Source of the DNA: Myxococcota bacterium | Lineage (GTDB): Bacteria > Myxococcota_A > UBA9160 > UBA4427 | Length of the DNA stretch: 64,000 nt | Assembly (NCBI GenBank): GCA_965250285.1 | Contig: OZ252299.1 | Location: 4,768,001-4,832,000, forward strand | Reading direction: 5' to 3' | Program-made: the position numbers and the translations under genes | The notes under the pieces: generated by a model | What the model saw: only the letters and a program-made list of their open reading frames with translations | What the model was told of the DNA's origin: nothing | The model's database searches: none | In this document: in pieces, positions 1-62,362 of the stretch | Numbering within the stretch: position 1 is the first letter of the stretch | How the letters are laid out: every line of letters begins with the position of its first letter

Positions 1-1907
1 GACACGGGCGCGCGGAAGCCGATCTCCATCTTCATCGCTTCGAGCAGGCCGAGCGGGTCGCCCGCCTCGACCTCGTCCCCCACCGCAACGCCCACCGACA
101 CGACCATCGCCGGCGACGTCGACCGCACCTGGCCGGCCGTCTGCAACCCATAGCGATGCGCGATGCCATCGACCTCGAGGCGAAGCGACAGCTCGCTCGC
201 GTCGTAGACCACGCGTCGCACTCGACCGTCGATTTCGAACCGGGCGCGGTGCTCGTCCTCTTCGCGAAGACGTGCCGAGACGACGCGACCGTCGAGGTGC
301 ACGCGATACCGCCAAGAACCGATCGCGTAGACCATGACGCGATAGCTCTCGCCATCCTTCGAGAGGTCGACCTGCTGGCCCTCGCTCGGCGGGATCCGCT
401 CGCGCGAGACCGCGCTCGAGTCAGCGAAGAAGAACTCCCGCGCGCGCGCCCGCGCCTGCTGATACGCGATGATCGCGGCGCCGACGAACGCGTCTTCGGC
501 CAGACCGTCGGCCCGCGGCTCGGCTGCACGCCGCGCGTCGTTGAAGCCGTCGAGCCAGCGCGTGTCGACCGGGCCGGCCCGGACCGCTTCGGCGTCGAGC
601 ACGTCGAGCAGGTAGCCCTTGTTCGTGGCCCCGCCCTCGACGACGAGCTCGAAGTCGCGCAGGGCCACGGCGAGTCGACCGCGCGCCTCTTCGCGGGTGT
701 CGCCCGTCGCGATCACCTTGGCGATCAGGCTGTCGAAGTCGGAAGAAATGGTGGTGCCCGCGGTGACGCCCGAGTCGAGTCGGACGCGCGGCCCCAGCGC
801 TGGGTCGAAGCACACGATCCGGCCCGGCGACGGCAGGAAGTCTTCGTCGGGGTCTTCGGCGCAGACGCGCGCTTCGAGCGCGACGCCCCGCTCCTGGATC
901 TCGAGGCCCGAGATCGATTCGCCGCGTGCGATGCGGATCTGCGTCTGCACGAGATCGACGCCGGTGATCTCTTCGGTGATGCCGTGCTCGACCTGCAGGC
1001 GCGGATTGACCTCGAGAAAGTAGAACTGATCGCCCTCGAGCAGAAACTCGACCGTGCCGACGCCGCTGTACGAAACGTGCTTCGCCATGCGAACGGCCGA
1101 GGCCTCGATTGCATCGCGCACGGCGCGCGGGAGACCGGGCGGGGGCGCTTCTTCGAGCACCTTCTGGTTGCGACGCTGAACCGAGCAGTCGCGACTGCCC
1201 ACCGCGATCACGTGACCGTGCTGATCGGCCGCGATCTGCACCTCGATGTGTCGGCCGCCCGTGACGAGCTTCTCGCAGAAGAGATCGCCGTTGCCGAAGG
1301 CCGAGAGCGCCTCGGAGCTCGCCGATTCGAAGGCCGCCGGCAGATCCTCGGGCTCGAAGACGAGGCGAATCCCGCGCCCACCGCCGCCCGCCGTCGCCTT
1401 GACGACGACCGGGTAGCCGATCTGTTCGGCCTGCTCGACCGCGTCTTCGACGTTCTCGAGCGCACGCCCGCTCCACGCGGTGACGGGCACGCCCGCCTTC
1501 TCGGCGAGCTGCTTCGACGTGATCTTGTCGCCGAGCCCGGCCATTGCGTCGGCGCTCGGGCCGAGAAAAGCGATCCCCGCCTCGGCCAGCTTCGTCACGA
1601 ACTTCGGATCTTCGGCGACGAAGCCCCAACCGGGCCACACCGCATCGACGCGCATCTGCTTGAGCGCATCGATCACGCGCTCGTGGTTCAGGTAGGCGGC
1701 GACGGCGCCGTCGTCGCTCGGGATCTCGATGCTCTCATCGGCGTGGCGAACGAAGGGCGTGTCGCGGTCGGGGTCGGTGAAGATCGCGATGGCGGAGAGC
1801 TCCCGCCCCTCGACTGCACGCAGCGCCTTCACGGCGCGAATGCAGCGCATGGCGGCTTCACCGCGGTTCACGATACCGAGACGACGAATCGGGCGACCGA
1901 GCGTCAA
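1..1907 (-). CDS. Fused biotin carboxylase + biotin carboxyl carrier domain (acyl-CoA carboxylase), partial, runs off left edge
   Basis: Not in the ORF track because no stop lies in the window. TTG at 1907 overlaps the PPTase stop (TTGA). Translation gives MTLGRPIRRLGIVNRGEAAMRCIRA, WPGWGFVAED, KATAGGGGRGIR, RDCSVQRRNQK, and in the same frame the biotinylation motif LEAMKME at ~24-44. Confidence 0.93.
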   Translation of the reverse strand, partial: MTLGRPIRRLGIVNRGEAAMRCIRAVKALRAVEGRELSAIAIFTDPDRDTPFVRHADESIEIPSDDGAVAAYLNHERVIDALKQMRVDAVWPGWGFVAEDPKFVTKLAEAGIAFLGPSADAMAGLGDKITSKQLAEKAGVPVTAWSGRALENVEDAVEQAEQIGYPVVVKATAGGGGRGIRLVFEPEDLPAAFESASSEALSAFGNGDLFCEKLVTGGRHIEVQIAADQHGHVIAVGSRDCSVQRRNQKVLEEAPPPGLPRAVRDAIEASAVRMAKHVSYSGVGTVEFLLEGDQFYFLEVNPRLQVEHGITEEITGVDLVQTQIRIARGESISGLEIQERGVALEARVCAEDPDEDFLPSPGRIVCFDPALGPRVRLDSGVTAGTTISSDFDSLIAKVIATGDTREEARGRLAVALRDFELVVEGGATNKGYLLDVLDAEAVRAGPVDTRWLDGFNDARRAAEPRADGLAEDAFVGAAIIAYQQARARAREFFFADSSAVSRERIPPSEGQQVDLSKDGESYRVMVYAIGSWRYRVHLDGRVVSARLREEDEHRARFEIDGRVRRVVYDASELSLRLEVDGIAHRYGLQTAGQVRSTSPAMVVSVGVAVGDEVEAGDPLGLLEAMKMEIGFRAPV

Positions 1908-2602
1908 GCGCAGACCTCACGTACACGGCGCGCCACGGGTCGCGTGAGTGACCGGGCGCGGCGAACGTCGCGCTGCGACCAGGCGCAGGCGACGAATCGA
2001 CCGTGATGGGAGAGGGATACGTCGATCGACGCATCCTTCCCATCGACCATCACCACCGGCACGCGGGCGCGCCGGTCGAGAGAGAGGCGAGCACGGGGCA
2101 CGCCGAGCGCCGCGGCGAGGCGGCGGATCAAGCGGCGGCGCACGTACGCCGAGGGATCGATATCGCTGTGGCCACTCGCGGCCGGCAGCGCGGCAATCTC
2201 CGACTGCGGGGCCAGATCGCCGTCGCGCCAGGCCGTCACATGGACGCGGTCGGCTTCGGCATGGGTCTCGACACGCAGCCGCAGATCGGCGAGCCGACCG
2301 GCGTTCGGCCCTGCGAAGGTGACCCAGCCGAACCCGTGAACGAGGTCGCCCTCGACGCGACGAGTGTCGGTCTCGACCTCGAAGCTCGACGGAGAGAAGA
2401 CCGTCGCGCGATGCCCGCGCTTGACCGCCTTGTAGGCGGCCTCTTTCGCGGCCCACAGCTCCCAGCGGGCGCGATCGGCGTCGGGCCGTTCGGCGAGCCA
2501 CGCACGCTCCGCGGCAGCGAAGGTGCGCTCATCGAAGCGCGGCGAGTACGTCGACGCATCGGCGTCGACATCGGCCAGATCGACGATGTCGTTACCGACC
2601 AT
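1904..2602 (-). CDS. 4'-phosphopantetheinyl transferase
   Basis: VGNDIVD and WAAKEAAYKA motifs, C-terminal VSLSHHG; sits in the ACP operon. Confidence 0.9.
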   Translation of the reverse strand: MVGNDIVDLADVDADASTYSPRFDERTFAAAERAWLAERPDADRARWELWAAKEAAYKAVKRGHRATVFSPSSFEVETDTRRVEGDLVHGFGWVTFAGPNAGRLADLRLRVETHAEADRVHVTAWRDGDLAPQSEIAALPAASGHSDIDPSAYVRRRLIRRLAAALGVPRARLSLDRRARVPVVMVDGKDASIDVSLSHHGRFVACAWSQRDVRRARSLTRPVARRVREVCA

Positions 2603-3353
2603 CGACGTGCGCCTCTTCCATGCGCTTCAGCTGGCCGACGATCTGTTGCGCGATGTCGCGGCTGCGGCGCGCGCCGCGGTGGTCGCTCTTCGGTTCGATG
2701 CACGCGATGTCGACGTAGATCGAGTCGCCCTGCGCCGGATAGTCGCTCCAGCTCTCCTGGCTGCGACCGCGCAGGTACACGCAGAGCACGCGGCAGCCCT
2801 CTACGCCGCCGACGATCCGCCCGACGCCCCAGGCCGCTGCGCTCTCTTCGACCCGACCGCTGCGCGACCGGCCACCCTCCGGAAAGAGCAGGGCGACCTC
2901 GCGCTGCTCGAGGGCGTACGAGATGCGACCGAGCACGGCGGCCACATCCTGGCGATCGCCGCCGCGGCGAATCGGTATGCACTTGCCGAGATAGACGAGC
3001 ACCCGTCGGAGCGGCGTCGTCGCGAAGTTCGTTTCTTCGGGCGTGTTCCAGGGCAGCGTGTCGTAGTCGAACACGTAGGCCCACGGCCCGCGCAGCGCCC
3101 ACGCGATCAGGAACGAATCGACGAGCGTCAGGTGGTTGCCGCAGATCAGCAGGGGCGCATTCGAAGCGCGGCGAATCGCGCGGTACTCGGCGCGGATCCG
3201 CTTCAGGTCTTCGATGCGATAGCCATTGCGCCAACGCATGATCGCAGCGGCGGCGGGCACCCATAGGGGTGCCACCAGCCAGCCGACCAGCCGCTGGACC
3301 GCGTGCGCCCTGCGCATACGTCGTAGATCGTCCGTGGATGCGTTGCCCGTCAA
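2592..3353 (-). CDS. Lysophospholipid / 1-acyl-sn-glycerol-3-phosphate acyltransferase (PlsC family)
   Basis: NHLTLVD (NHxxxxD) and FPEGGRS motifs; TTG start preceded by GGAGG. Confidence 0.9.
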   Translation of the reverse strand: MTGNASTDDLRRMRRAHAVQRLVGWLVAPLWVPAAAAIMRWRNGYRIEDLKRIRAEYRAIRRASNAPLLICGNHLTLVDSFLIAWALRGPWAYVFDYDTLPWNTPEETNFATTPLRRVLVYLGKCIPIRRGGDRQDVAAVLGRISYALEQREVALLFPEGGRSRSGRVEESAAAWGVGRIVGGVEGCRVLCVYLRGRSQESWSDYPAQGDSIYVDIACIEPKSDHRGARRSRDIAQQIVGQLKRMEEAHVDGR

Positions 3354-3423
3354 GGAGCCCCCTCCAGGCGCACCTCGCCGGATCCCGATCTCGCAGCACC
3401 GCCGCGTCGCGGCGGCACGGGGA

Positions 3424-3672
3424 TCAGCCGAGCTTCTCGAGGATCAAGTTCACCGAGTCACCGACCGTGTTGACGCTGTCGACGTCCTCGTCGGCGATCT
3501 CGATGTCGAACTCGTCCTCGAAGGCAATCACGACATCGACGAGTCGGGCCGAGTTGACCTTGAGATCGTCGAGGATGTTCGTCTCCATCGACACGCTGGC
3601 CAGCGCATCTTCGTTCTTGACCCACGGCGTGAGAATCTTGACCACCCGCTCCATCACTTCGCCCTGGTCCAT
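3424..3672 (-). CDS. Acyl carrier protein
   Basis: 82 aa, acidic; DDLKVNSARLVDVVIAFEDEFDIEI, TVGD; strong AGGAGG RBS. Confidence 0.93.
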   Translation of the reverse strand: MDQGEVMERVVKILTPWVKNEDALASVSMETNILDDLKVNSARLVDVVIAFEDEFDIEIADEDVDSVNTVGDSVNLILEKLG

Positions 3673-3811
3673 CGTCGCTCCTCCTTCTTCTACTTACGTG
3701 ATCACGTGCTGTCGTGCTCACGCCGATCCGGCGCCCATCTGTCACGAACCGGGTGCACCCACGTCGGGCGCCACCGATTCGAGGGCCATCGAAGACCGCC
3801 CCCGGCGGCCT

Positions 3812-5089
3812 TCAGCCCTCCCACTTCTTGAAGACGAGGCACGCATTCACGTCGCCAAAGCCGAAGCCCGCCTTCATGATCACCTTCATGTCGGGCTGCT
3901 CACGCAGCTCGTGCGGAATCGAGGCCGCATGCGGCTCGATCTCCGGATGAACGTCTTCGCAGTTGATCGAGGGATGCACCCACCCGCCCGAAACCATCAG
4001 CACTGCGGCGACGGATTCGACGGCGCCCGCGGCGCCCAGGGCGTGCCCGATCATCGATTTCGTACTCGTGATGGTAGGAAGCTCGCCGGGCCCGCGCCCT
4101 AGGGCCTTCGCCCAGCTGCCGACCTCGCGCGGGTCGGCGCCGGTCGCCGTCAGGTGGCCGCTGATCGCGTCGACGTCGTCGGCGGTGATGCCCGCGTCGT
4201 CCATGGCGAGCTGGATGCAGCGCCGAACGCTCTCGGGATTCGGGGCCGTCATGCTGCCCCCCATGCGGTGGCCGCCGCAGTTGATGCCGGATCCGCCCAC
4301 CTCGGCCCAGATCTTCGCGCCCCGAGCCTGGGCACTCTCGAGGCTCTCGAGCAGCACCACGCCAGCGCCGGAGCCCGGGATGAAGCCACCCGCCGAGGCA
4401 CTCATCGGCCGCGACGCCTTCTCGGGTGCGTCGTTCGAGCCTCGGTTGAGCACCCGCATTGCGTCGAAACCGGCCCAGATATAGTGGCTCGCCGCCTCCG
4501 AGCCGCCGCAGAGCATGCGCTCGGCCTGTCCGTGTCGAATGCGATCGAGCCCCATCGCGATCGCCTCGGTGCCCGTGCTGCAGGCGCTCGAATTCGTCGT
4601 GACCTGGTTGCCGAGGGCGAACTGACCCGAGATGCGGGCCGAGATGCCGCTCGCCATCACCTGCTCGACGGCGGTCGAGCCCAGGCGGCGCAGCTTCCCG
4701 GCGTCGGTGAGCGGCACGACCTTCTCGCCGATCGTGTCCATCCCGCCGATGCCCGTGCCGATGATCGCGCCGGTATCCCAGTGGACCGTGTCGTCTTCGC
4801 GGGACGGCCGCTCGAGCCCGGCGTCCGCCCACGCCTCCACCGCCGCGAGGCTCGCGTAGCGGTGGTTCATGTTCATCGCGAGGAGCTCGTCCTCTTCGAA
4901 CGTCGACTCGGCCAGCGCGTCGATGCCTTCGCAAGAGCCCGCCACCGTGCAGCCGAACTTGTGCTCGACCATCACCTCCTGGTGCCGGATGCCCGACTGC
5001 CCCTTCTTGAGAGACGTTTCGAACGCATCTCGCCCGTTGCCGTTGGGCGCGATGATGCCGAGACCGGTAATGACCACACGCCGTGTCAT
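3812..5089 (-). CDS. fabF: Beta-ketoacyl-ACP synthase (FabF/KAS II-like)
   Basis: RRVVITGLG start; Cys-His-His triad in SSACSTG, SGHLTAT and KSMIGHALGAAG; GFGFG near the C-terminus. Confidence 0.9.
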   Translation of the reverse strand: MTRRVVITGLGIIAPNGNGRDAFETSLKKGQSGIRHQEVMVEHKFGCTVAGSCEGIDALAESTFEEDELLAMNMNHRYASLAAVEAWADAGLERPSREDDTVHWDTGAIIGTGIGGMDTIGEKVVPLTDAGKLRRLGSTAVEQVMASGISARISGQFALGNQVTTNSSACSTGTEAIAMGLDRIRHGQAERMLCGGSEAASHYIWAGFDAMRVLNRGSNDAPEKASRPMSASAGGFIPGSGAGVVLLESLESAQARGAKIWAEVGGSGINCGGHRMGGSMTAPNPESVRRCIQLAMDDAGITADDVDAISGHLTATGADPREVGSWAKALGRGPGELPTITSTKSMIGHALGAAGAVESVAAVLMVSGGWVHPSINCEDVHPEIEPHAASIPHELREQPDMKVIMKAGFGFGDVNACLVFKKWEG

Positions 5090-5556
5090 CGAGGTACTCC
5101 CATGCCGGAGAGTTCACCCGCACAGACCACGGTGCCGTCGTCGAGCCGCATCTCGACGTCGCACCGCAGCTTCTTGCGCCGGAAGAACTTCACCCGGCCC
5201 GTCGTCGTCACGCGATCCCCGGGCTTCACCATGCCACTGAACTCGACGTTCGCGTCGGTGAAGACGGTGATCAGCTTCTCGACCTCCTCTTGTGAATGGT
5301 CGAGCGCGTAGAGATAGATGCCGAACGCGACGACACCCGCCTGCGCCATCGTCTCGATGAGAATCACACCCGGCGTGATCGGATTGCCGGGGAAGTGACC
5401 GCGGTAGAAGTCCTCGTCGGCCTTGAACGTATAGCTGGCGACGATGTGCTCGCGGTCGAGCTCGGCGATCTCGTCGATGAAGCGGAAGGGGGCCTGCTGG
5501 GGCACGAGCCCGAGCACCTCTTCTTTCGACAGCTCGACGCCTGCGATCTCAGCCAC
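5086..5556 (-). CDS. 3-hydroxyacyl-ACP dehydratase, FabZ-like hotdog
   Basis: PQQAPFRFID and GHFPGNPITPGVILIE (His/Glu type). GTG at 5556 overlaps the fabG stop region; the ORF track starts at 5571. Confidence 0.88.
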   Translation of the reverse strand: MAEIAGVELSKEEVLGLVPQQAPFRFIDEIAELDREHIVASYTFKADEDFYRGHFPGNPITPGVILIETMAQAGVVAFGIYLYALDHSQEEVEKLITVFTDANVEFSGMVKPGDRVTTTGRVKFFRRKKLRCDVEMRLDDGTVVCAGELSGMGVPR

Positions 5557-6286
5557 CGTACATGCCCCCATTCACGTGCACGACCGTGCCGTTCACGTAG
5601 CTCGCCCGCGTCGAAAGGTAGGCGACGACGTCGGCGACCTCGTCGGCCGTGCCCATGCGGCCCTGGGGAATGCGCGAGAGGATCGCCTCCTTCACCTCTT
5701 CGGGCAGCTCCTCGGTCATCTCAGTGTCGATGAAGCCCGGTGCCACCGAGTTCACCAGGATCTCACGCCCCGCGAGCTCTTGCGCGAGGGATTTCGTGAA
5801 CGCATCGAGGCCGGCCTTCACCATCGTGTACGGGATCTGGCCCGGATTGCCGGTGTGCCCGACGACGCTCGAGATGTTCACGATGCGTCCATTGCCCTTG
5901 CGGAACATGAAGCGACGCAGCACCAGCTTGGTGAGATACCAGCTGCCGCGCGCGACGCCCGCGACATCGTCGTACTGATCGAGGTTCATCGACAGCATCG
6001 GTGCATTGATGTTGAAGCCCGCGTTGTTCACGAGCACGTCGACGCGTCCAGCCTCTTCCTTCAACGTCTTGATCAGCGCATCGACCGACTCGGGGTCGGT
6101 CAGATCGGCCTTGACGGTGAATGCGTCGGGCAGCTCGGCTGCGAGCTTCTTCGCCTTCTCCTCGCTCGAGCGATGGTGCACGGCCACACGGAAGCCCTCG
6201 GCCGCAAGCGCACGACAGCACGCCGCACCGATGCCGGTGCCTCCACCCGTCACGAGGGCGACGGGCTTTTCTTCGGGTTCGCTCAA
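5549..6286 (-). CDS. fabG: 3-oxoacyl-ACP reductase (SDR)
   Basis: TGGGTGIG, VNNAG, NISS, YTMVK, VAPGFIDTEMT, VNGGMY; operon context. Confidence 0.9.
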   Translation of the reverse strand: MSEPEEKPVALVTGGGTGIGAACCRALAAEGFRVAVHHRSSEEKAKKLAAELPDAFTVKADLTDPESVDALIKTLKEEAGRVDVLVNNAGFNINAPMLSMNLDQYDDVAGVARGSWYLTKLVLRRFMFRKGNGRIVNISSVVGHTGNPGQIPYTMVKAGLDAFTKSLAQELAGREILVNSVAPGFIDTEMTEELPEEVKEAILSRIPQGRMGTADEVADVVAYLSTRASYVNGTVVHVNGGMYGG

Positions 6287-6293
6287 CGCCTAA

Positions 6294-6571
6294 CGCTCCA
6301 TTCGGCCGCCCCGGCTGTTTTCGGAGGGCCAGGGGGCGCCTGCGGCGGGCGCAGGCGCACATTCATTCTCATCGCTCCATCTGGCCGCCGCGACTGTTTT
6401 CGGAGGGCCAAGGGGCGCCTGCAGCGGGCGCAGGCACACATTCATTCTCATCGCTCCATCTGACCGCCGCGACTGTTTTCGGAGGGCCAAGGGGCGCCTG
6501 CAGCGGGCGCAGGCACACATTCATTCTCATCGCTCCATCTGACCGCCGCGACTGTTTTCGGAGGGCCAAGG
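6294..6571. repeat. 79-bp tandem repeat, ~3.5 copies (last 45 nt of fabA + 34-nt hairpin-containing insert)
   Basis: CGCTCCAT recurs at 6294, 6373, 6452 and 6531; units are near-identical, and the fabG-proximal copy is the most diverged. Confidence 0.97.
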
Positions 6572-7135
6572 AAAGTCCGGATAGTCGATGTCCTTGAAGA
6601 GGCCGACGCGCGCGCCCTTCACGGTGTAGATCTCCTGGTCGTCGACGATCACCTTCGCGTCGCCGACGATCATCGAAGCACCCGCGCTCTCGAGGGTCGT
6701 GTAGCGCTTGACCTGCAGCTCGTAGCGCACGACCGAGTCGTGGGGACGGATCTGGCCGAAGAACTCGACCTCGCCGCAGCCGAGTGCGCGACCCGTGCCC
6801 AACCCGCCGCGCCAGTTGCAGTAGAAGCCGAAGAGCTGCCAGACCCCGTCGACGCCGAGGCAGCCCGGCTGCACCGGATCACCGAGGAAGTGACACTGGA
6901 AGAACCAGTCGTCGAGGTGGATGTCGCGCTCCGCGACCAGCGTGCCCCGGCTCTTGTTCGCCGTGATCTCGGTGATGCGGTCGACCATGAGCATCGGCGG
7001 CAAGGGCAGGCGCGCCTTGAAATCGGCCGGCGGATCTTTCACCAGGCGTCCGTACGCGAATGCGAGCAGCTCGGTCTTGCTGAACGAAGTGCGGCTCAAG
7101 AACTCGTCGTAGGTGATTGCGTCGCCGGGCGTCAT
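6527..7135 (-). CDS. fabA: 3-hydroxydecanoyl-ACP dehydratase/isomerase
   Basis: LPLPPMLMVDRI, WFFQCHFLGDPVQPGCLGVD (His/Asp type), GRALGCGEVEFFGQIRP. Confidence 0.92.
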   Translation of the reverse strand: MTPGDAITYDEFLSRTSFSKTELLAFAYGRLVKDPPADFKARLPLPPMLMVDRITEITANKSRGTLVAERDIHLDDWFFQCHFLGDPVQPGCLGVDGVWQLFGFYCNWRGGLGTGRALGCGEVEFFGQIRPHDSVVRYELQVKRYTTLESAGASMIVGDAKVIVDDQEIYTVKGARVGLFKDIDYPDFPWPSENSRGGQMER

Positions 7136-8154
7136 GCGGCCTCCCGGAATCGAACGAGATACGAGCCCCAGGTCAGACCTGCACCGACGCCCACCATCGC
7201 GACATCGTCATCGGCCTTCCACTTGTCCCAGTCTTGCGAGAGCACGCTGGCGCCGCTGGCGGCGCCCGTGTTGCCGAACCACTCGGCGTTCGAGTGGTGC
7301 CGGTCGGGCGGTATGTCGCAGCGTTTGCAGACGCTCTCGAGCATGCGCAGGTTGGCCTGGTGCCCGATGAAATGGAAGCTGCGGTCTTCTTCGACCCAGT
7401 TCTCACGCAGAGCGTTGACACGGCCAGCCGTCTTCTTGATGGCGAACATCTGAACCGTGCGGCCTTCCTGATCGAAGTGACCGAGGCGCGGGATCAGCAC
7501 CTTCTCGTTGCCCTGGGGATCGGATTCGAGGGTCGATCCCACGATCTCGGCCCGCCCCGTGTCGCGCGGCGAGATCACCGCCGCGACCGCAGCGTCGCCC
7601 CAGAGCACCGCCGACGAGCGGTCGGTGTAGTCGACCGTTCGCGTCATGCCTTCCATCGAGACCAGCAGCACGTAGTCGGGGAGCTTCGCGGGATCCATCA
7701 TCGAGAGCATGTAGATGCCCGCGTAGAAGCTCGTGCAGGCCGAGTTCATGTCGAGTGCGGGCACCCCGAGGTCGAGCTCGCGCGCGAGGTTGCACGCGTC
7801 GGCGGGCGTGACGGTGTCGGGTGCACAGCCGCCGCCGATCACGAGGCCGACCTGCTGCGCGTCGACGCCCGCACGCTCGAGCGCGAGCCGTGCGGCCCGG
7901 GCCCCCATCTGAGCCTGCGAGTACTCCGCCGCTTCGATCGCGTCGGCCGGGTTCGCGTTGCGGGTCTCACGGATATAGTCGAGGGGGAGCGCCGTGCGGC
8001 GGCTGCGGATGCCGACCCGCTCCATGATCCAGTCGTGCGAGGTCCCGATGTCGAGGCTCTCGAGGAACGCATTGTCGATCTCGTTCTCGGGATGGAAGTG
8101 CCCGAGCCCCGCCAGGAAAAGACTCACTCCGCTGCTCCCCGTCGCGTTCGACAT
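7132..8154 (-). CDS. Ketoacyl-ACP synthase III (FabH-like)
   Basis: TSHDWIMERVGIRSR, NSACTSF, GHQANLRM, GNTGAAS (Cys-His-Asn). Start uncertain (8178, 8154 or GTG 8127). Confidence 0.9.
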   Translation of the reverse strand: MSNATGSSGVSLFLAGLGHFHPENEIDNAFLESLDIGTSHDWIMERVGIRSRRTALPLDYIRETRNANPADAIEAAEYSQAQMGARAARLALERAGVDAQQVGLVIGGGCAPDTVTPADACNLARELDLGVPALDMNSACTSFYAGIYMLSMMDPAKLPDYVLLVSMEGMTRTVDYTDRSSAVLWGDAAVAAVISPRDTGRAEIVGSTLESDPQGNEKVLIPRLGHFDQEGRTVQMFAIKKTAGRVNALRENWVEEDRSFHFIGHQANLRMLESVCKRCDIPPDRHHSNAEWFGNTGAASGASVLSQDWDKWKADDDVAMVGVGAGLTWGSYLVRFREAA

Positions 8155-8363
8155 CGGGCCTGAGCCAGATGTCTCCACCGACCCGTGTGGGCCATCGCGG
8201 GCAGGGGGCTCCCCGCGAGAATCTCATCGATCTCGCTGCCCCCGCCCATCCTGCACGAGGGCGTGGCGAAAATAGCCCCGTCCGGCTCGCGTGCGCCTCG
8301 TTCGAGTGCAAACGTCGTGCAAATTCTCGAAAGATGGCCGTGATTTGCTGCGCGTTCGGAGGA

Positions 8364-13988: not shown

Positions 13989-14082
13989 GTGATCAGGGCT
14001 CGGGTTCGGCTGGCGAGCGACCGGTGATCTGGGCTCGGATGCGGCTCGCGAGCGACGTGTGATCAGGGCCCGGGTACGGCTG
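13989..14082. repeat. 35-bp tandem repeat (~2.7 degenerate copies) containing the stop of the TPR lipoprotein gene
   Basis: GTGATC(A/T)GGGC(T/C)CGG at 13989, 14024 and 14059. Confidence 0.8.
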
Positions 14083-60775: not shown

Positions 60776-62086
60776 TCAATTCGAGCTCGGGGCCTCGAAC
60801 GCGTGGGCCAGTTGCTGCGTGATATCCCCCGCCGTCACCGGCCGGGTCTCGTCTTCGGCCGGCGGCGTGCCGCCTGCCGAGATCAGCGTCATGTCGACGT
60901 CGGGGCTCTCGGCGCGCAGCGCCGCGACGGTGCATGCCTCGCGTTTGCGATGCGCGAACGGGTCGAACGCGTAGTCGCGCGCCGCGTTGGCCCACGTCAT
61001 CTTGTGAATTTCGTCTTCGGGCACGCCTTCGAGACTCTTCGCGAGCCGCTCGGGCGCGTTGGGCCACGTCGTATCGGAGTGCGGGTAATCGCACTCCCAG
61101 TTGATCGTGTCGATGCCGACGTCGTGACGCAGCTTGATGCCGATCGCGTCGTCGATGAAGCACGTGAGGATGTGCTCGCGAAACACGTCGCTCGGCTTCT
61201 TCTTGCCGAAACTCTGATTCGTCCACTGGTGGTGGTGCTCATAGACGTAGTCGGCGCGCTCGAGGAAGTACGGGATCCAACCGATCCCCCCCTCGCTGAG
61301 CGCGATCTTGAGGTTCGGGTACTTGCGCAGCACCGGGCTCCAGAGGATGTCGGCGGCGCAGGTGACGATCGAGATCGGCGACACCGTGATCATCACGTCG
61401 ACGGGCGAATCCATCGAGCTGAAGACCATGCCGGCCGAGCTGCCGATGTGGATGCACACGACAGTGCCTTCGTCGTCGCACGCCTGCCAGAACGGGTCCC
61501 AGTGCGGATCGTGGAACGACGGCATGCCGATCTTCGTCGGGTTGTCGGTGAACGAAACCGCGTGGCAGCCCTTCTTCGCCACGCGCCGCACCTCTTCGGC
61601 CATGAGGTTCGGATCCCAGATGGGCGGGATCATCAGCGGGATGAAGCGGCCCGGGTACGTGCCGCACCACTCGTCGATGTGCCAGTCGTTGTAGGCCTGG
61701 CTCATGACGCGGGCGAGCGTCTTGTCCTCGGTCGTGTTCCAGAGCTGGCCGCAGAAGCTCGGAAACGATGGAAAGCAGATCGACGCGAGCACGCCGTTCG
61801 CGTTCATGTCGCGCACGCGCTCGTGGACGTTCCAGCACCCGGGGCGCATCTGGTCGTAGCTCGTGGGCTCGACCCCGTACTGCTCGGGCACCCGGCCCAC
61901 GACCGCGTTGAGGCCGATGTTCGGCAGCTTGCGCCCGTCGAACTCCCAGACGTCGGCGCCGCCGGGCAGCTGCACGACCTTCGGCGCCTTCGCCTTCCAC
62001 TCGGGCGACAGGTGTTGGTCGAACATGTCGGGCGGCTCGACCACGTGATCGTCGACGCTGATCATGATCATGTCTTCGGGGTTCAT
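60776..62086 (-). CDS. Amidohydrolase family protein (Amidohydro_2-like)
   Basis: ISVDDHVVEPP, AYNDWHIDEW, CIHIG, LSEGGIGW, WECDYPHSD. Confidence 0.9.
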   Translation of the reverse strand: MNPEDMIMISVDDHVVEPPDMFDQHLSPEWKAKAPKVVQLPGGADVWEFDGRKLPNIGLNAVVGRVPEQYGVEPTSYDQMRPGCWNVHERVRDMNANGVLASICFPSFPSFCGQLWNTTEDKTLARVMSQAYNDWHIDEWCGTYPGRFIPLMIPPIWDPNLMAEEVRRVAKKGCHAVSFTDNPTKIGMPSFHDPHWDPFWQACDDEGTVVCIHIGSSAGMVFSSMDSPVDVMITVSPISIVTCAADILWSPVLRKYPNLKIALSEGGIGWIPYFLERADYVYEHHHQWTNQSFGKKKPSDVFREHILTCFIDDAIGIKLRHDVGIDTINWECDYPHSDTTWPNAPERLAKSLEGVPEDEIHKMTWANAARDYAFDPFAHRKREACTVAALRAESPDVDMTLISAGGTPPAEDETRPVTAGDITQQLAHAFEAPSSN

Positions 62087-62174
62087 CGCGGGCTCCTCAG
62101 CCACTTCGAGTCTTCGAGGTTCATCGCAGGCTCCTCGGCCGCGTCATCTCTTCGAGGTGCATCGCGGGCTCCTC
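62073..62174 (-). repeat. 38-bp tandem triplication of RBS + start codon, forming two 13-aa uORFs
   Basis: GAGGAGCC(C/T)GCGATG(A/C)ACC(C/T)CGAAGA with ATGs at 62162, 62124 and 62086. Confidence 0.88.
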
Positions 62175-62362
62175 CGCCGCCGGGCCGGGTCGAACATCTG
62201 GGGAGGATTCGGCGCGAGGACGGGGTTCCCGGCGCTTGAGACCGATTCTGACGCCCCGTCAGAAACTCGTCAAGCAGGGGGCGCGGACGCGGGCGTGCCC
62301 GTCCACCGATGCCCCGAGGGGCAAATCTGGAGATCGCAGGGGTGGCGTAGAGCGGGGCGCGT

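Follow-up and report, generated by a model that had tools for sequence, protein, structure and literature searches.

The window, as the whole stretch of 64,000 nucleotides analysed here is called, carries a fatty-acid operon on its minus strand (1904..8178), composed of a fabH-like gene, fabA, fabG, fabZ-like and fabF-like genes and the genes of an ACP, an acyltransferase and a phosphopantetheinyl transferase. A sigma-70-like promoter match (10/12; 8390-8363, minus strand) precedes the fabH-like gene, where a DinG/exonuclease gene ends. All the features of the fabA/fabG junction described below are on the minus strand. The fabA-like gene (6527..7135) encodes a dehydratase/isomerase of 202 aa (NCBIfam PRK05174, 208 bits for a cut-off of 124) and the fabG-like gene (5549..6286), which starts with TTG, a 3-oxoacyl-ACP reductase of 245 aa (NCBIfam PRK12826.1-2, 222.9 bits for a cut-off of 222; TIGR01830, E = 1e-74). 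The two genes are separated by a tandem array of 3.5 copies of 79 bp (TRF score 493, 95% matches), each unit being made up of the final 45 bp of fabA (F) and a 34-bp insert. Three full units (6571-6493, 6492-6414 and 6413-6335) are followed by a terminal 45-bp copy (6334-6290), called T. A first-pass annotation of this DNA had reported 79-bp repeats at this place and a 29-aa peptide encoded in them; the unit length, the position and the peptide all hold. The coding copy F1 (6527..6571) is the 3'-terminal 45 bp of fabA itself; it reads PWPSENSRGGQMER, then the stop codon TGA, and ends in ATGA. Insert 1 (6493..6526, 34 bp) is unique to the locus and includes a predicted 9-bp hairpin (6516-6494). 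Unit 2 (6414..6492; F2 6492-6448, insert 2 6447-6414) is identical to unit 1, and unit 3 (6335..6413; F3 6413-6369, insert 3 6368-6335) has three C-for-T differences from it. In the fabA frame, T (6290..6334) reads PWPSENSRGGRMER and stops at TAG; it is followed by GCG and then by the TTG start of fabG. Comparison with relatives shows that this T-type junction corresponds to the ATGA junction of the family plus 7 nt (7-nt shift, 6287..6293).

Three mini-ORFs run through the array. Mini-ORF A (6369..6530, 53 aa) is ATGA-coupled at both ends (its TGA being at 6371-6369), mini-ORF B (6290..6451, 53 aa) goes from the ATG at 6451 to the TAG at 6292-6290, 3 nt before fabG, and mini-ORF C (6283..6372, 29 aa) ends with a TGA (6285-6283) that overlaps the fabG TTG. 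The first-pass annotation had read an unbroken stop-start chain from fabA to fabG, in which the fabA TGA (6529-6527) meets the ATG at 6530, the TGA at 6369 meets the ATG at 6372 and the TGA at 6285-6283 meets the TTG at 6286. These coordinates are exact and both of its frames, of 53 and 29 aa, stand, but the middle ATG at 6451, which opens the second 53-aa frame, had been left out. The GGAG that it noted before each ATG is also present, but it lies only 2 nt from the overlap ATGs, too near for the usual Shine-Dalgarno spacing. Another GGAG (6296..6299) is the candidate Shine-Dalgarno of fabG, with a 9-nt spacer and a duplex energy of -6.1 kcal/mol, close to the genome median; across the starts, the energies go from -5.0 to -6.1 and do not separate the overlap ATGs from the fabG start. 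No promoter- or terminator-like site was detected on the coding strand of the array, and its Rfam search returned a single chance match (E = 0.52), with none above noise.

The array was also sought in short-read contigs from runs X1-X3, which belong to one study and possibly to the assembly's own source, and from run X5, which belongs to another (run X4 was left out, its coverage being too low). Read depth over the shared repeat segment is about double that of its unique neighbours (79 vs 34-41 in X1, 76 vs 45-50 in X2 and 390 vs 185-190 in X3), which fits three units. X1-X3 yielded neither a contig joint skipping the array nor an empty allele, in contigs that drop rare variants. In X5, a 109-nt contig crosses copy, insert and copy at unchanged spacing, with 9 differences and no gaps. 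The whole array is spanned by none of the contigs listed, as might happen if it were an assembly artefact. Yet the doubled depth in three runs, the divergence between the units, the same unit in a contig of an independent study and a separate array in a congener leave this explanation, which the first-pass annotation had named as one that would overturn its reading, with a practically negligible probability: as far as the contigs show, the array is real. In the X5 insert (window 6414-6447), all five changed codons alter the ATG-frame peptide. Four of its six changes are silent in the frame leading into the fabA-frame copy (p = 0.06), a pattern that the inserts of the congener do not have. The stem changes in this genome and X5 all keep pairing, as G-C or G-U. 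The array is old enough for a diverged strain to have it as well, which fits weak maintenance.

The junction in relatives and the possible origin of the insert

A FabA match was obtained in 32 of the 41 genomes searched, among which G001 is the only congener of the genome studied here (G000). Thirty loci were compared, 28 of them from other genera. In 25 of these 28, fabG stands directly behind fabA with no repeat, and the other three are without an adjacent fabG match. Read by eye, the junctions of the other genera mostly display a DTGA overlap, often with GGAGG or GGAAG 8 nt upstream. The state of the family is an array-free junction. G001 has an array at the same junction, in which two 76-bp units of 45 + 31 bp are followed by a T copy that encodes the same peptide and precedes an ATG. 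The mini-ORF peptides differ between the two genomes. A pattern scan of metagenomes retrieved two array-free loci of the same genus, L031, which has the ATGA end, and L032, in which the T-type end is the real end of fabA. The fabG start is ATG in G001 and L032 where G000 has TTG. At 4-fold sites, L032 and G001 diverge by 4-5%, and the other pairs by 29-38%. L031 groups with G000 in the tree (93/92), but a topology with L031 as the outgroup is also compatible with the data (p-AU = 0.074), and the tree therefore does not settle the sequence in which the events took place. In the same operon, G001 bears a 37-bp array on the fabG stop codon (L052:6719-6836), a position at which G000 has none.

The insert is confined to this junction. 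Short-word blastn found nothing beyond 19-nt chance matches elsewhere in the 6.25-Mb genome, and the genome-wide search that had been proposed for it gave only the three local inserts at up to 8 mismatches. Each insert, in G000 as in G001, has its best match in the 5' end of its own lineage's fabG, at a weak level (rank p = 0.02-0.08 among 5,208 gene starts), and the inserts of both genomes are not significantly alike (p = 0.13). The insert may derive from a copy of the 5' end of fabG that has decayed, an origin that so weak a resemblance can only suggest, which counts against the explanation favored below. A copy of upstream fabA was discarded as its source, there being no similarity. A CRISPR array or an off-target neo-array was discarded as well, as the inserts are copies of each other and not distinct spacers; no CRISPR-like array was found in G000.

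The array had been likened in the first-pass annotation to the mycobacterial MIRUs (or MIRU-VNTRs) that were reportedly described by Supply et al. in 1997. In the portions considered of three papers, MIRUs are tandem units of 40-100 bp between operon genes, with an internal ORF that overlaps the flanking stop and start codons at -4; they form a dispersed family at 40-50 sites, whose tetranucleotide direct repeats suggest transposition, and they are proposed to be harmless since coupling is kept (PMC3184786, PMC12548453, PMC2734929). The fab array is similar in that its 79-bp units are arranged in tandem between two genes of an operon, with -4 stop/start overlaps and coupling predicted to be kept. 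It differs in that it has one ORF for every two units and in that its unit, made from the junction itself, is locus-unique, with three local inserts in place of about 40-50 sites per genome. Set against the empty alleles of L031 and L032, what has been duplicated is a 45-bp piece of fabA and not a 4-bp target. The G+C-rich inverted repeat of MIRUs may have a counterpart in the 9-bp hairpin of the G000 insert, but the G001 insert is unfolded and the wider class of repeats described below has no folding excess; moreover, most repeats of that class sit on plain stop codons. As for copy number, which the first-pass annotation proposed to compare in related genomes, it does vary between lineages (three units in G000, two in G001, none in L031 and L032), these being different lineages and not one species, but all of X1-X3 have three. 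Since the insert is unique to the locus and the unit is built from the fabA end, the array is not a dispersed MIRU element. More generally, a MIRU-like or MITE/REP-like mobile unit, entering at start codons and amplifying in tandem, would agree with the unit size, the -4 geometry, the internal hairpin and the existence of both filled and empty alleles. Nevertheless, the genome has no second copy, Rfam gave no match above noise, a piece of the host gene is duplicated and the insert found at this junction in the congener is a different one, which makes such an origin very unlikely.

Tandem repeats of two sizes in the genome

TRF was run on the whole genome and its results were combined with our own gene calls (5,208 genes), which gave 193 arrays with a period of at least 25. 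The 54 non-triplet arrays of 30-47 bp are distributed as 30 on a stop codon only, two on a start only, four on both and 18 intergenic, when random placement predicts 3.4, 3.8, 1.7 and 4.0, respectively. The 14 non-triplet arrays of 66-86 bp include nine on a stop only, none on a start only, three on both and two intergenic. Overall, 39 non-triplet arrays are stop-only vs two start-only, for roughly equal numbers under random placement. A TRF-free scan (period 15-130) detected 269 near-exact repeats, 116 of them at 33-47 bp, 39 at 70-84 bp (155/269 in both bands) and 10 at 48-69 bp, a single one of which is not a multiple of 3. The genome contains over a hundred site-specific repeats of about 39 or 78 bases, mostly at gene ends. 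The units of this class are copies of local sequence: among 72 stop-spanning units there is neither a shared motif nor excess folding relative to matched windows, the best 4-6-mer having p of about 0.001 before correcting for hundreds of words. The possibility that the 70-84-bp units are dimers of shorter ones was rejected (just 3/23 at p < 0.05, which do not include the fab unit). Triplet repeats inside genes have their peaks at these sizes as well, which indicates that the process is not confined to gene ends. The window includes two further members of the class, a 35-bp array on a stop codon (13989-14082) and a 38-bp array at a gene boundary (62068-62180). The genome also harbours a dispersed 119-146-bp repeat family, which occurs in tandem too (G000:C1:7164, 1096153, 1539235, 4146877, 5018971, 5069502 and 5764131).

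In G001, 484 kb out of about 5.8 Mb contained 15 arrays, 10 of them non-triplet, and one of the 15, at the fab junction, is matched in G000. A sample of 1.175 Mb, taken from 13 further genomes of the order, contained five non-triplet arrays, two of them in the size bands where 12.6 would be expected at the G000 rate, a comparison between kin that are not independent and with a small sample per genome. The presence of the class in G000 and G001 and its scarcity in the 13 other genomes make it a trait of this genus. Some constant-size bacterial satellites have comparable properties. In the portions considered of the work of Subirana and Messeguer, those of Bacillus and others have units of 20-21 and 52 nt, with a length spread of +/-1 nt in Bacillus, and are described as lineage-restricted, of preferred length, variable in sequence, often non-triplet and of unexplained origin (PMC8161180, PMC6749651). 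The present class resembles them in its preferred unit length, variable sequence and restriction to a lineage. In contrast, it occupies two wider bands (33-47 and 70-84), mostly has 2-5 copies, lacks families and shared short motifs and is tied to gene 3' ends. This tie is absent from the portions considered of PMC8161180, in which "stop codon" and "intergenic" have 0 mentions. Our literature search, whose coverage leaves out most subscription papers, found no account of size-banded stop-codon duplications in this group, nor a paper combining tandem repeats, stop codon, translational coupling and MIRU.

One possible explanation for the class is a mutational process targeted to gene 3' ends through a size-setting machine, in which selection would be secondary. 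Candidates for such a process include transcription complexes that stall or collide and flaps bound by SSB, with a length of one or two footprints. It would agree with the sharpness of the two-band spectrum, its 1:2 ratio, its gap at 48-69 bp and the fact that few of the larger units are dimers. When only the arrays clear of any stop codon are considered, 23 of the 33 in-gene in-class arrays are located in the 3' half (p = 0.02) and 20 of the 27 intergenic ones are closer to the stop upstream of them (p = 0.01). Convergent junctions make up 17% of all junctions and account for 37 of 116 arrays. Yet a 3' bias is also what selection would produce unaided, given the lower tolerance of starts, promoters and N-termini. 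Furthermore, the peak of in-gene triplet repeats at the same sizes speaks for a genome-wide process, there is no leading/lagging bias (30 vs 37) and no genus-specific repair gene was found among those searched. The weak 3' polarity of the stop-free arrays makes a targeted process possible, but we consider it unlikely.

The survey of candidate machinery showed PolA 5' nuclease and MutS in 31/31 genomes, and ExoVII, Mfd, RNase HI, Rho and SSB in G000. No reverse transcriptase (PF00078) was detected; Ku was not found in G000 or G001 and is present in 8/31 genomes. RecJ (TIGR00644) matches in 0/41 genomes of the order and in 13/14 controls, and SbcD is present in just 4/41. As these lacks are order-wide, they cannot explain a genus trait; they may reflect an order-wide loss of single-strand exonucleases. 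Cas1 was rejected as the machinery of the genus, as it occurs in 6/41 genomes and was not found in G001 (83% completeness). In G000, it is a solo gene of 409 aa (G000:C1:3245618-3246844), near which neither a CRISPR array nor another cas gene was recognised, and is adjoined by five tandem paralogues of about 165 aa (G000:C1:3242021-3245023).

Predicted translational coupling and proposed history of the array

The stop-start chain through the fab array closes in silico for any number of units from 0 to 6, because T ends both incoming frames: with an even number of units, at the TAG 3 bases before fabG, and with an odd number, at the TGA over the fabG start. The 7-nt shift closes the relay for odd copy numbers and places GGAG 9 nt from the fabG start. 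How easily a relay arises was evaluated by simulating 2,718 duplications of 453 real 4-nt-overlap junctions. The relay was automatic in 79% of them, with closure in 99% for unit lengths of 2 mod 3 and in 3% for lengths of 1 mod 3 with odd copies, which is the fab case. A random shift closes the odd frame about once in three times, so the 7-nt rescue is, by itself, only suggestive. Coupling at ATGA overlaps is said to work by termination-reinitiation (reportedly Huber 2019 and Huber 2023). According to the portions considered of a review, coupling is seen in E. coli reporters, some exceptions aside, at spacings from -4 to +3 nt, and a Shine-Dalgarno is helpful, not required (PMC12548453). The -4 or +3 spacing at each hand-over of the fab array is inside this range, and its short ORFs are likewise predicted to have ribosome delivery as their sole role. 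The unlike features are the two predicted hand-overs in a chain and their birth by duplication.

Eleven further arrays lie over tight stop/start overlaps in a caller-independent test: eight have the length that preserves a one-unit relay, one is in frame and two have doubtful TTG starts. For a base rate of 0.36, the probability of eight relay-length arrays goes from 0.002 (8/9) to 0.03 (8/12, counting the fab array and the doubtful cases against), in a count that is small and depends on our own gene calls. This proportion makes it likely that purifying selection for coupling acts on overlap-junction arrays. Together with closure at 0-6 units, it supports the suggestion of the first-pass annotation that the repeats are tolerated because they keep coupling. 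The fab array, whose unit length does not give such a relay, is the exception that the 7-nt shift rescues. A 43-bp junction array elsewhere in this genome was confirmed as well. The eight relay-length arrays have one mini-ORF per unit (G000:C1:3650-3925, 582828-583009, 1102860-1102929, 1211675-1211761, 1592906-1593271, 3420658-3420774, 4687506-4687668 and 5104182-5104369). The genes at G000:C1:3650 are presumably ruvC and ruvA, judging from N-terminal sequence, and the 77-bp array at G000:C1:1592906 gives four 26-aa frames.

We therefore favor, with a probability of roughly 0.7, the view that the array arose by tandem copying of the junction between fabA and fabG, likely through a genus-specific duplication process of about 39 or 78 bp, and was likely kept since both genes remained intact and the stop-start chain closed. 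In that case, coupling would have been lost with a first duplication of 76-79 bp, whose length is 1 mod 3; a micro-duplication of 7 nt within the distal copy would have closed the frame again and given fabG a normally spaced GGAG; and the insert would be what decay left of the copied 5' part of fabG. The 45-bp copies could then have exchanged unequally, which would amplify the unit, or collapse it to a T-type empty allele such as that of L032. Ribosomes leaving fabA would reinitiate through throw-away mini-ORFs until they reach fabG, which may also start independently. The mini-ORF peptides are likely devoid of function, and repeats of about 39 or 78 bp likely survive just where genes and coupling stay intact.

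Alternatively, the array could be a selected expression tuner, as the first-pass annotation had proposed for the downstream fab genes. The number of units would set the FabG-to-FabA stoichiometry, and hence that of the downstream fab genes, through the added reinitiation steps and the hairpin 10 nt behind each ATGA. Structure just 3' of the upstream stop reduces coupling, according to the portions considered of the same review (PMC12548453). The closure at every copy number from 0 to 6 would suit a tuner, as would the fact that both genomes of the genus have an array here, at their sole common site among 15. The hairpin of insert 1 is also more stable than its shuffles (z = -3.3 to -3.5), and pairing is kept in all the G000/X5 stem variants. 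However, the whole unit is not better than its shuffles, a C-to-T change in the stem always yields G-U, and excess folding is absent from the class taken together. The insert of the congener has no significant similarity, the peptides of the mini-ORFs vary freely, L031 and L032 have zero copies and X1-X3 all have three units with no skipping joint. Besides, a GGAG lies 9 nt before fabG itself, and most members of the class are found on ordinary stops, with no relay. Tuning is accordingly a quite improbable reason for the maintenance of the array.

The terminal copy is less easily accommodated by the duplication of the junction that we favor. Of its 45 nt, five differ between G000 and G001, and none of these changes alters the peptide of the fabA frame (P of about 4e-4), while 4-fold sites differ by 37%. 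T is thus nearly frozen, and a neutral copy should not show all-silent divergence; this counts against the favored explanation, as does the trend to silent changes in the X5 insert. Part of the effect is due to polarity, as several differences from F are recent C-to-T changes in the coding copy, part to conversion from F and part to a coding role of T-type ends as in L032, but these do not explain it fully. A silent bias of distal copies was rejected as a genome-wide rule (37 silent vs 142 non-silent differences, no bias). The frozen T could also mean that the locus is an alternative-end cassette, in which both types of 45-bp end are kept coding by frequent collapse of the array or recombination with empty alleles, T repeatedly serving as a real fabA end. 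This would account for the wholly silent divergence of T and for the T-type end that is coding in L032, only 4-5% away from G001 at 4-fold sites. Nevertheless, no empty allele was seen in X1-X3, whose contigs drop rare variants, and the coding end of L032 lacks an R codon that both non-coding T copies have. A cassette would be compatible with the duplication of the junction, and we assign it a low probability.

At the scale of the genus, these observations could be brought together by a hitherto undescribed process of duplication whose ruler, of about 39 nt, is used in one or two lengths and which, aimed at gene 3' ends, would continually seed new stop-codon repeats and, at overlapping junctions, MIRU-like relays. 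The fab array would be an old, domesticated product of it, in which the 7-nt shift made coupling independent of copy number. This proposal is tentative and, in our judgment, rather doubtful; if it were true, the genus would offer a natural model for how MIRU-type units and constant-size satellites can arise without a mobile element. On its own, the fab array is a tidy, ordinary case of a junction duplication that keeps coupling. The arrays of the class may be used as strain-typing markers in an uncultured lineage. Their banded unit sizes, found in two congeners and scarce in 13 other genomes, point to a mutational mechanism that can be approached by comparative genomics, and a genus with many independent small duplications is a natural experiment that shows what selection tolerates at gene ends.
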